Shown here: positions 9,743-12,011 of the stretch, piece by piece | Layout of the letters: each line of letters begins with the position of its first letter | How positions within the stretch are numbered: the stretch's first letter is position 1 | From: Escherichia phage AV119 | Strand: one strand, 5' to 3' | Sequence record: OR352949.1 | Length of the DNA stretch: 64,000 nt | Position numbers and translations under genes: made by a program | Notes under the pieces: generated by a model | The model's input: the letters and a program-made list of their open reading frames with translations, nothing else | The model's database searches: none | What the model was told of the DNA's origin: nothing

Positions 9743-12011
9743 TTAAAAATATTTTTTAAAACTCATCATAACTTTATCATCAACATCATTATCAATCTGT
9801 GCTACAAGGTAAGATGACAGTTCTACTTCTTGCGGTGCAGATTGAACATTATCAGAATTAAGATATTCACGAATCCAAGGATACGGATGTTTAACCGGAG
9901 CATCGGTAATTGGGCATGGAAGACCACATTGTTTCATACGAGATACAGTTAAGTAATCAATAAAGCTCCACATGCTATTTGTATTTAATCCAGGAACATC
10001 GCCGTCTTTAAATAAATGAACTGCCCAATCTTTTTCTTGGCGGTTAACTTCCATGAAAATATCAACTGCTTCTTGTTCACACTCTTGAGCAATTTTAACC
10101 CATTCATCGCCATCAGTACCGGATTGAAGTTGACGAATAATATATTGAGTGCCTTTAAGGTGAAGCTGCTCATCACGTGCAATGAACTTCATAATCTTGG
10201 CATTACCTTCCATGATTTCCATGTTCTTATGGAAGTTAAAGGTACCGTATGTTCGATTGAGCTCGCTAATTCTCAACCCGTTCTCTTATGAACTGCTGCA
10301 TGTTACCATGCAGTCCAGACTATATCACAATCCCGGAGGGATTCTCCCCATTTCGAGTCGCTTGACCCTACGTCCGAAGACTAGTCGTTGAACCTTGTTT
10401 TGCAATTGTCGCCGTGCCATCGTTTATATGTTGATGGTGATAAATCTTTCTTACCACAATATGGACAATTCAATTGAATTCTATTTGGATTTAATTTACA
10501 TCTGTCATTATGTTTTAGATAAAATCCAGGACCTTTACCAATGTGACCACAGAAATCACATGTGATTTCTTTTTGTGCAGGATGGGTCCCGTTCTTAACC
10601 ATTTCTAATGTTTTTGCTGATGTTCTTTTCTTATGGTCTTCTGATAAGAAATGATGTGAACCGTCATTTACCCGTTTTGATTGAGTTTCTGACTGCATTT
10701 TACCACCGCAAAATACATGAGTACCTTCTTTTATAGCTGCAATATTGCGTTCTTTAACTTTTGCAATATGCTCAGCTTGTTGAAAATTATGTATACCTAA
10801 TGCAACTCTATTTAAATTAGATTTACGCTGTATTTCACCATCTAAAAGATGAAATGTACCATTTTCTATCTTAGATTTAATAGAGGCAATATTTTTAGCT
10901 CGTACTTCAGGGATATTAAAAATCTGGATTTCTCTAGATTTTGCGGCTTTAGAAGCTAATTCAGAAATTTCTTCAGGAGAATATTTCATTCTAAGCTTTA
11001 TAGCATGACAAGCCTGATAATCTTTTTGAGCTAAATGTATATCATAATGTTCCTGTATAGAAAGGCACATCAAATTATCTAAATCATTATTTTCACGGTT
11101 ACCGTCTTTATGATGGATTTCGTATGTTCTTCCATCAGAATCTTTAGGTATAGGTCCGTTAGCATCTATCCAAATTTTTCTATAGTTCAATTGTGCATCC
11201 TCTTAAAAGTATAATCATATTTATATTATACTAATTAAAGGTGCAAGCAAAACCTTGGCTGCTAGTTTTCCTATAAAGGACTTTCCAGCAATTAAAGGAG
11301 TTTTCGATAAACGTTACCGTTTAAAGGCGCATTTTACGCAAAAGATACATAAAAACGAATAGCTTCCAATGCGTTGATTACATGGAGGCAAAGGTAAAGA
11401 GATTTCATTAAAGCACGTTTAGCTTCGGCTTCTTGTTTAATAGCTCGGTTTAAACGAAAGACGGCATCAGGAGATTCTTTAGCTAGTTCTACAAATTCTT
11501 TAGCATTTTCCCATTCACGGGTTTTAATCAGAACATCATCATAATAACGTCCAATGGATTCAGCACGTTTCATAATAGCTTCATCTAATACAATTTCATC
11601 AAATACCTTCGATGGATCAGTATAAAGATTTCGCATGATATGAGTATATGAACGACTGTGAATAGTTTCACTAAAAGTCCATGTAGCAACCCATGTATCA
11701 AGGCTTGGGTCTGAAATTAATGGCATAAGTACAGCAGACGGCGCACGACCTTGAATACTATCAAGTAATGATTGATACTTCAGATTATTAGTAAAAATAT
11801 TTTGTTGATACTGAGGAAGCTTATTAAATTGAGTAGCATCCATCATTAAGTTTACTTCTTCAGGACGCCAGAAAAATGACAACTGCTTTTCGGTTAAATC
11901 TTCAAAAACTTTATGACGTTGAATATCATAACGCGCAATACCAAGACCTGAACCAAAAAACATAGGTTCTTTTAAAACATCAACTGGATTTGTATTAAAA
12001 ACTGTGCTCAT
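9743..12011 (-). CDS. nrdB: ribonucleotide reductase small subunit NrdB, interrupted by a group I intron; exon 1 11336..12011, exon 2 9743..10245
   Basis: exon 1 ORF ends ...[10 protein letters not shown], exon 2 resumes ...[18 protein letters not shown], together matching class Ia R2 (E. coli ...[28 protein letters not shown]); predicted junction gives VSFA-C-TFNF. Confidence 0.85.
10246..11335 (-). mobile_element. group I self-splicing intron in nrdB (about 1090 nt) carrying an HNH homing endonuclease ORF
   Basis: exon 1 ends in U (11336), intron ends in G (10246), splice restores frame; RB3-type nrdB intron architecture. Confidence 0.75.
10381..11190 (-). CDS. HNH homing endonuclease, I-TevIII-like (269 aa), intron-encoded
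   Basis: HNH motif EIHHKDGNRENNDLDNLMCLSIQEHYDIH; C-terminal Cys4 zinc-finger-like CDFCGH...CPYCGK; TTG start 8 nt after AAGAGGA. Confidence 0.8.
   Translation of the reverse strand: MNYRKIWIDANGPIPKDSDGRTYEIHHKDGNRENNDLDNLMCLSIQEHYDIHLAQKDYQACHAIKLRMKYSPEEISELASKAAKSREIQIFNIPEVRAKNIASIKSKIENGTFHLLDGEIQRKSNLNRVALGIHNFQQAEHIAKVKERNIAAIKEGTHVFCGGKMQSETQSKRVNDGSHHFLSEDHKKRTSAKTLEMVKNGTHPAQKEITCDFCGHIGKGPGFYLKHNDRCKLNPNRIQLNCPYCGKKDLSPSTYKRWHGDNCKTRFND

Follow-up and report, generated by a model that had tools for sequence, protein, structure and literature searches.

A full-length RB3-type nrdB intron with an I-TevIII reading frame in Escherichia phage AV119

The nrdB gene of bacteriophage T4 contains an intron for which guanosine-dependent self-splicing is known. 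In the T4 RefSeq record the intron is described as group IA and its endonuclease, I-TevIII, as 'defective ... deletion in proximal half'. The longer RB3-type nrdB intron is credited to Eddy and Gold (1991), as cited in PMC2988022, and the RB3 intron and its I-TevIII were characterized by Robbins et al. (2007; PMC1865063). Alanine substitutions in RB3 I-TevIII showed that cleavage depends on residues H26, H27, N39 and H48, and the binding of zinc and DNA on residues C211, C214, C242 and C245 (PMC1865063). The T4 intron endonucleases are translated from late transcripts, whereas early and middle read-through transcripts do not permit their translation (PMC2988022). Here a stretch of 64,000 nucleotides (nt) of Escherichia phage AV119 (OR352949.1), referred to as the window, was analyzed, and the feature at positions 9,743-12,011 was compared with these systems. 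The region very probably comprises nrdB interrupted by a mobile group I (subgroup IA-type) intron in the full-length RB3 form with I-TevIII. The element is already known, being one more copy of the RB3-type nrdB intron with I-TevIII, and it carries little weight as a discovery because intron and endonuclease have been characterized both genetically and biochemically.

Positions 9740..12020 are 100% identical to Escherichia phage AV120 (OR352950.1), a Tequatrovirus whose isolation source was pig waste, and the nrdB region is 96.9% identical to that of phage RB3. These identities place the predicted nrdB intron far beyond chance. The gene order on the minus strand is nrdA (14327..12063), a 51-nt spacer, the exon 1 open reading frame (ORF), the I-TevIII ORF, the exon 2 ORF, denA, which specifies the GIY-YIG endonuclease II and lies downstream of nrdB exon 2, and rnlA. 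The principal features, with the evidence for each in brackets, are:

12011..11336, minus strand: nrdB exon 1, 676 nt, codons 1-225 and base 1 of codon 226 (ORF; T4 junction; colinearity with phage vB_EcoM_SP1, hereafter SP1)
11335..10246, minus strand: group I intron, 1090 nt, beginning AAAAUGCGCC and ending ...GAACAUACG with terminal G10246 (homology to RB3 and T4; Rfam RF00028)
11190..10381, minus strand: I-TevIII ORF, 269 amino acids, TTG start, UAG stop (ORF; Pfam; comparison with RB3)
10245..9743, minus strand: nrdB exon 2, 503 nt including the stop, beginning GUACCUUUAAC (ORF continuing NrdB; alignment with SP1; Pfam)

An earlier note on this DNA, made by a model from the letters alone, had proposed that NrdB is encoded in two exon ORFs, that a splice placing U11336 at the end of exon 1 and G10246 at the end of the intron gives a 392-amino-acid NrdB, and that the intervening ~1090 nt are a group I intron; all three proposals were upheld. 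The exon 1 reading frame of 225 codons (12011..11334) closes at a TAA composed of U11336 and intron bases 1-2. The 3' base of exon 1 is U11336 and that of the intron is G10246, so that excision of 11335..10246 (1090 nt) produces ...TTT GCG T/GT ACC TTT... and a single ORF for a 392-amino-acid NrdB. The predicted spliced mRNA at the junction reads ...UUUGCGU-GUACCUUU....

The position of the junction was examined by comparison with T4 and with intronless alleles. The span of the T4 nrdB coding sequence (CDS) and its 388-amino-acid product fix the length of the T4 intron at 598 nt, and the T4 junction that preserves the R2 sequence has exon 1 ending UUUUGCGU and an intron beginning AAAAUGCGCC and ending GAACAUACG. 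The flanks of the T4 intron are those of the window intron and the junction is identical. A BLAST search with the 1090-nt interval matched T4 at exactly 138458..139055 (598 nt), and a 300-nt query composed of both predicted exon ends gave a single ungapped match in many phages. The nrdB gene of SP1 is intronless and measures 1179 nt, which is the length of the predicted spliced CDS; the two align without gaps over 1179 nt with 95.2% nucleotide identity and eight amino acid differences. The spliced NrdB gave one Pfam Ribonuc_red_sm (PF00268) match (E = 4e-37) at residues 33-335, which runs across the junction at residues 225/226. The junction position thus is fixed by four independent results: the T4 flanks, the T4 BLAST span, colinearity with SP1 and the continuous Pfam domain. 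The predicted spliced product is a continuous R2 domain of a class Ia ribonucleotide reductase beta subunit (NrdB). Other junctions with an exon-end U, an intron-end G and an open frame (e.g., offsets 631 and 648 in a scan of T4) were rejected, as they would remove the conserved FYVSFA and are not colinear with the intronless alleles.

Identity between the window intron and that of RB3 nrdB is 98.9%, and the 598-nt T4 intron matches the former at both ends with 99.3% identity; alignment with these two introns, which the earlier note had suggested, returned the same junctions. The intron terminates in a G (omega-G), G10246, at the junction set by T4 homology and the SP1 allele. As a separate observation, the SP1 intronless allele has two synonymous differences at the insertion site, G to A at -2 and T to C at -5 (window 11337 and 11340), the former of which would change the exon strand of the P1 helix from GCGU to GCAU.

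The ORF within the intron was then compared with RB3 I-TevIII. Two parts of the predicted protein were delimited:

11181..11047, minus strand: HNH catalytic motif, residues 4-48, with H26, H27, N39 and H48 (Pfam HNH_3)
10560..10402, minus strand: two zinc fingers of the form CX2CX12-13HX3C, residues 211-231 and 242-263 (motif search)

The HNH_3 match at residues 4-48 scored 48.6 bits against a cutoff of 24.8 (E = 6e-13). A Pfam FlgM match at residues 74-114, with 26.2 bits against a cutoff of 25, was treated as spurious. The window and RB3 proteins are identical at 266 of 269 residues and differ by Y23D, G246D and T265A (window to RB3). The TTG start follows an AAGAGGA sequence with 7 nt between its last A and the TTG. 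The TTG is preceded by an in-frame TAA at a distance of four codons and is followed by no in-frame ATG before codon 40, which falls within the HNH motif, so the TTG is the only start that preserves this motif; the annotated RB3 I-TevIII begins at the same TTG. Residues H26, H27, N39, H48, C211, C214, C242 and C245 are all retained. The predicted protein is a full-length orthologue of RB3 I-TevIII located inside the nrdB intron. The earlier note accordingly was right in reading an intact 269-amino-acid HNH and zinc-finger ORF with a TTG start after AAGAGGA, and the check that it had suggested for inactivating changes in the HNH motif found none at H26, H27, N39 or H48 in the RB3 alignment.

The window I-TevIII aligns without gaps, at 89% identity, with its orthologue in the Gelderlandvirus NP4. 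The window and NP4 ORFs differ by 106 substitutions in 810 positions, distributed 26:14:66 over codon positions 1:2:3, and this third-position bias indicates that the ORF is under purifying selection. Substitutions in the intron core relative to NP4 number 10 in 280, a rate about 3.6-fold slower than that of the ORF. The predicted intron RNA core is, by this measure, under tighter constraint than the I-TevIII ORF.

One residue raises the possibility that the intron splices but that this I-TevIII allele is catalytically impaired or impaired in DNA binding, and therefore is an immobile passenger heading for ORF loss as in T4, U5 and PD112 (phage vB_vPM_PD112). G246 adjoins the zinc ligand C245, and RB3, T4 and NP4 have an aspartate at this position. 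Moreover, decay of the ORF is common among relatives, as in the 491-nt deletion of T4, the 2-nt frameshift of U5 and the 785-nt loss of PD112. Nevertheless, the eight residues established as critical by experiment are intact in a full-length ORF with no frameshift, a 99.6%-identical protein is present in at least one other phage, near-full-length matches occur in 87 records, and the comparison with NP4 points to purifying selection. An impaired allele therefore is regarded as unlikely. Y23, which is next to the HNH histidines, also was considered as an inactivating change and was dismissed, as the NP4 orthologue likewise has Y23.

The sequence preceding the ORF contains elements that could restrict when I-TevIII is produced:

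11245..11194, minus strand: hairpin sequestering the Shine-Dalgarno sequence, intron positions 91-142 (RNA fold)
11225..11218, minus strand: T4 late-promoter motif TATAAATA, in the apical part of this hairpin (sequence match to the T4 late-promoter consensus)

The hairpin pairs the Shine-Dalgarno AGAGG (11203..11199) with CCUUU (11241..11237). The fold of 11247..11186 has a free energy of -14.9 kcal/mol (z = -4.39) and none of 200 shuffled sequences was as stable, whereas RNA starting at 11212, just 3' of TATAAATA, is unstructured (-0.7 kcal/mol). The region with the late-promoter motif and the hairpin is identical to that of T4, in which the promoters were mapped. In the read-through pre-mRNA the Shine-Dalgarno of I-TevIII would be held in the stable hairpin, and the putative late promoter within the hairpin would generate a transcript with a free ribosome-binding site. 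By analogy with the T4 endonucleases, I-TevIII expression probably is confined to late infection.

The structure of the intron RNA was examined after removal of the ORF at the endpoints of the PD112 deletion, which yields a 305-nt core. The minimum free energy (MFE) fold of this core is -85.8 kcal/mol (z = -4.68), with none of 100 shuffled sequences as stable, and comprises P2, P4, P5, P6, P6a, P7.1, P7.2, P8, P9, P9.1 and P9.2. A helix-by-helix check found full complementarity for these helices and for P1 and P3. The earlier note had called for folding of the intron into P1-P9 with pairing of the guide to the exon 1 end, and both were recovered, with 4/4 pairs in P1. The helices are placed as follows:

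11339..11327, minus strand: P1, exon GCGU (11339..11336) with the internal guide GCGC (11330..11327), U.G at the 5' splice site (4/4 pairs, by inspection)
11323..11308, minus strand: P2 hairpin UAAACG-GUAA-CGUUUA (MFE fold)
11300..11295, minus strand: P3 5' strand CUCCUU, partner 10349..10344 (6/6 pairs)
11290..11260, minus strand: P4 (UGCUGG/CUAGCA) around P5 (UCCU/AGGA) (MFE fold; helix check; Rfam alignment of the homologue)
11259..11247, minus strand: P6 (GCC) and P6a (GUUUUGC) 5' strands, partners 10403..10392 (MFE fold; helix check)
10386..10318, minus strand: 3' catalytic core (Rfam; MFE fold; helix check)
10386..10382 and 10322..10318, minus strand: P7 5' strand GACUA and 3' strand UAGUC (5/5 pairs, by eye)
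10381..10372 and 10368..10355, minus strand: P7.1 and P7.2 (MFE fold)
10349..10344 and 10342..10330, minus strand: P3 3' strand GGGGAG and P8, followed by J8/7
10313..10296, 10293..10280 and 10278..10255, minus strand: P9 (GUAA loop), P9.1 and P9.2 (MFE fold; helix check)

The partner strands of P6 and P6a at 10403..10392 place the I-TevIII ORF in the P6a loop, and the final six codons of the ORF with the UAG overlap the P6a and P6 3' strands, J6/7 and the P7 5' strand. The interval from the P7 5' strand to the P3 3' strand accommodates P7.1 and P7.2, an arrangement that is a hallmark of T-even phage IA introns. The P1 helix is short and we infer it from complementarity.

Variation in the helices was assessed in six copies (window, RB3, U5, PD112, T4 and NP4) and in the td intron, a small sample in which pairing was judged without a formal covariation statistic. 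All helix substitutions among RB3, U5, PD112, NP4 and T4 keep the pairing, and the remaining substitutions are in loops and joining regions. In intron positions, A16-U25 of P2 is replaced by G-C in NP4, a compensatory change, and C17-G24 by U.G. In P6a, U84-A938 becomes U.G through A938G in RB3, NP4, U5 and PD112. In P9, G1029-C1034 is replaced by A-U in RB3, PD112, NP4 and U5, which again is compensatory, and G1025-C1038 becomes G.U (C1038U). The double compensatory changes therefore number two, in P2 and P9, with three others to or from wobble pairs. T4 lacks A64 and has a P5 that is one pair shorter. The core helices P2-P9 are supported by pairing-preserving variation in this small sample.

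Several results weigh against the assignment of the region as a group I intron with a functional, late-expressed I-TevIII, among which the glycine adjoining C245 has been described. The curated threshold for the Rfam family Intron_gpI (RF00028) is 50 bits. A scan at gathering thresholds reported nothing for the whole window or for the T4 nrdB locus, and when the RF00028 search was narrowed to 10200..11400 the match at 10296..10536 reached 35.7 bits (E = 3.7e-7), which is below the threshold. P1, an assignment made by inspection, comprises only 4 base pairs, and in the Rfam alignment the PD112 homologue has a different P1 with mismatches. The TATAAATA motif is not enriched in the window, with nine occurrences against 9.8 expected; the motif is no evidence in its own right and the promoter assignment depends on the T4 literature.

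The Rfam results were pursued further. The 598-nt T4 copy likewise is below the gathering threshold, and an E-value search of 9000..13000 returned no intron and only weak, spurious matches to snoZ39 and L20_leader. The 35.7-bit match is correctly aligned only in the 3' core, that is, in J6/7-P7, P3', P8, J8/7-P7' and P9. The shortfall on the window presumably arises because the insertion in P6a, 785 nt with the ORF, cannot be bridged by the model. A natural copy of the intron without the ORF in PD112 differs from the window core by six substitutions and two small indels and gave an RF00028 score of 68.6 bits (E = 2.1e-17) over model positions 1-253, with an alignment that begins in exon 1. The ORF-less copy of the intron thus exceeds the 50-bit threshold. 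This score, together with homology of the core to the T4 nrdB and td introns, supports the group I assignment of 11335..10246. Separately, the last ~80 nt of the intron (10248..10326, positions 1010-1088) show 83-96% identity to unannotated or intergenic stretches in unrelated phages, namely, phages of Pectobacterium, Klebsiella and Pseudomonas and an oyster metagenome phage. These stretches presumably are other group I introns with a common 3' domain.

It also was considered whether nrdB is truly split by an inserted endonuclease cassette, with two polypeptides translated separately and assembling in the absence of splicing. The mobE-split nrdA of Aeromonas phage Aeh1 is a known case of a split gene, and in AV120 and many related GenBank records nrdB is entered as two 'beta subunit' CDSs with a homing endonuclease or hypothetical protein, with neither an intron nor a joined CDS indicated. 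The records of RB3, T4 and U5 do give a join. However, the non-coding parts on either side of the ORF make up a conserved group I core. This core is above the Rfam threshold in the ORF-less copy, changes more slowly than the ORF by a factor of about 3.6 (10/280 compared with 106/810, NP4) and includes compensatory changes in its helices. Furthermore, the identical junction in T4 is annotated as a joined CDS with an intron that RefSeq assigns to group IA. The split annotation is explained most simply as an artefact of automatic gene calling, and a split nrdB is considered highly improbable. On the reading of nrdB as interrupted by a spliced intron, the gene should be annotated as a single joined CDS, complement join 9743..10245, 11336..12011 (window coordinates). 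The practical value of the finding lies in fixing the split-gene annotation in AV120 and its many relatives.

Experiments with T4 and RB3 suggest how the element would operate, and splicing, cleavage, homing and late expression are expected here by analogy. Transcription of nrdB would proceed through the intron and the RNA would adopt the P1-P9 core. From the near-identity of the core with that of T4, we infer guanosine-dependent self-splicing, in which a guanosine-initiated two-step reaction would join U11336 to G10245 and generate the mRNA for the 392-amino-acid NrdB. The P6a loop would encode I-TevIII, whose HNH motif is combined with two zinc fingers at the C terminus; this endonuclease would cut intronless nrdB. 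Double-strand-break repair off an intron-bearing genome would then copy the intron into the cut allele (homing).

The nrdB region matched 1015 phage records. The intron matched 190 records in some part, 84 of which cover at least 80% of it, and near-full-length I-TevIII matches were found by tblastn in 87 records; by these counts the full-length element is carried by 84-87 deposited phage genomes. Relatives represent different states of the homing cycle: intronless (SP1 and others), full-length (window, RB3 and NP4, with the NP4 copy 89% identical overall), frameshifted (U5), T4-type deletion, and ORF-less (PD112). These natural states of the nrdB intron are a handy illustration of the life cycle of a homing endonuclease. 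The ORF-less state of PD112 is traceable to a 7-nt direct repeat, ACAATTG, which flanks the I-TevIII ORF at 11194..11188, where it overlaps the TTG start, and at 10409..10403, which is 20 nt before the stop. The PD112 intron is the exact product of a 785-nt deletion between these repeats. Other ORF-less copies are present in BYEP01, CJY920 and SP21535. Besides having lost the ORF, PD112 lacks 2 nt within TATAAATA, and U5 has both a 6-nt deletion in the late-promoter and ribosome-binding-site hairpin and the 2-nt frameshifting deletion in the ORF. The U5 and PD112 deletions fall at intron positions 109-117 and 301-302. They are signs of decay of the putative expression signals along with the ORF.

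The surroundings of nrdB also vary among relatives. The nrdA-nrdB spacer of the window (12012..12062, 51 nt) has no free-standing homing endonuclease. The same slot is occupied by mobE in T4 and RB3, by hef in U5 and by a MobB-like gene in NP4, and it is empty in PD112; in SP1 it has an unnamed 'endonuclease' CDS of 732 nt, the length of RB3 mobE. To judge by these gene contents, the nrdA-nrdB slot evidently is a hot spot of endonuclease-gene gain and loss. On the other side of the gene, a GC-rich hairpin, GGGCCGCAAGGCCC, with a T-run (9712..9741, minus strand) is situated immediately after the stop codon of nrdB and extends into the region of the denA start. A terminator is annotated at the homologous place in SP1, and the spurious L20_leader match in Rfam is due to this terminator hairpin. 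Elsewhere in the window, the thymidylate synthase gene td (14885..15745, minus strand) is uninterrupted and specifies 286 amino acids with a Pfam Thymidylat_synt match over positions 1-266/266; the phage therefore is without the td intron and I-TevI of T4. A single type II topoisomerase subunit of 606 amino acids (43610..45430, minus strand) contains HATPase_c, DNA_gyraseB and TOPRIM_C domains, and presumably is the unsplit form of gene 39 without the mobA/gene 60 arrangement of T4.

Among the described systems, the RB3 nrdB intron is alike in gene, insertion site, length to within 1 nt, 269-amino-acid ORF and TTG start, and differs from the window copy by 12 substitutions and one 1-nt indel. 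The P9 pair that is G-C in the window is A-U in RB3, and RB3 has mobE between nrdA and nrdB in contrast to the 51-nt spacer of the window phage. The T4 nrdB intron has the same splice junctions, and its remaining 598 nt differ by one substitution and one 1-nt indel. The sequence that it has lost is:

11126..10636, minus strand: 491 nt deleted in T4, intron positions 210-700, including I-TevIII codons 23-185 and the HNH motif (alignment)

An imperfect direct repeat, GAAGAACATA/GAAGACCATA, contains the endpoints of this deletion, by which the HNH motif is lost and the reading frame shifted; the annotated 97-amino-acid 'I-TevIII' of T4 begins at an out-of-frame ATG. The earlier note had described the T4 intron ORF as a deletion derivative, in agreement with both this alignment and the 'defective' of RefSeq, and had termed the window form 'ancestral'. 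The latter description stands to the extent that the window copy is closer to the T4 intron than is RB3, which differs from T4 by seven substitutions and two indels; the step from closeness to ancestry is one of interpretation. Tentatively, and with the balance of judgement against it, of the copies that survive, the AV120-type one may stand closest to the intact form from which the T4 nrdB intron arose. The AV120-type copy then would offer a cleaner natural system than RB3, also in lacking mobE beside nrdB, in which one could ask whether I-TevIII alone sustains spread of the nrdB intron, and whether short direct repeats (ACAATTG and those of the T4 deletion) turn loss of the ORF into a stage of the homing cycle that recurs and looks programmed. 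The PD112 intron shares the core and the junctions with the window intron and differs by the absence of 785 nt with the entire ORF.

A further counterpart is the td intron of T4. Its 3' core blocks are near-identical to those of the window intron, namely, AACGACUA, GUAGGGUCAAGYGACUCGAAA, GAUAUAGUCUG and the P9 hairpin. The sequences of P3, P7.1, P8 and P9.2 in td are unlike those of the window intron but complementarity is kept, as in P3, for which td has CUAUC/GAUAG at places homologous to the window P3 strands. The td intron differs in its host gene and in its endonuclease, I-TevI, which is a GIY-YIG and not an HNH enzyme. Both introns carry the ORF in a peripheral loop, and the late-promoter and ribosome-binding-site hairpin type of control in td is predicted for the window intron also.

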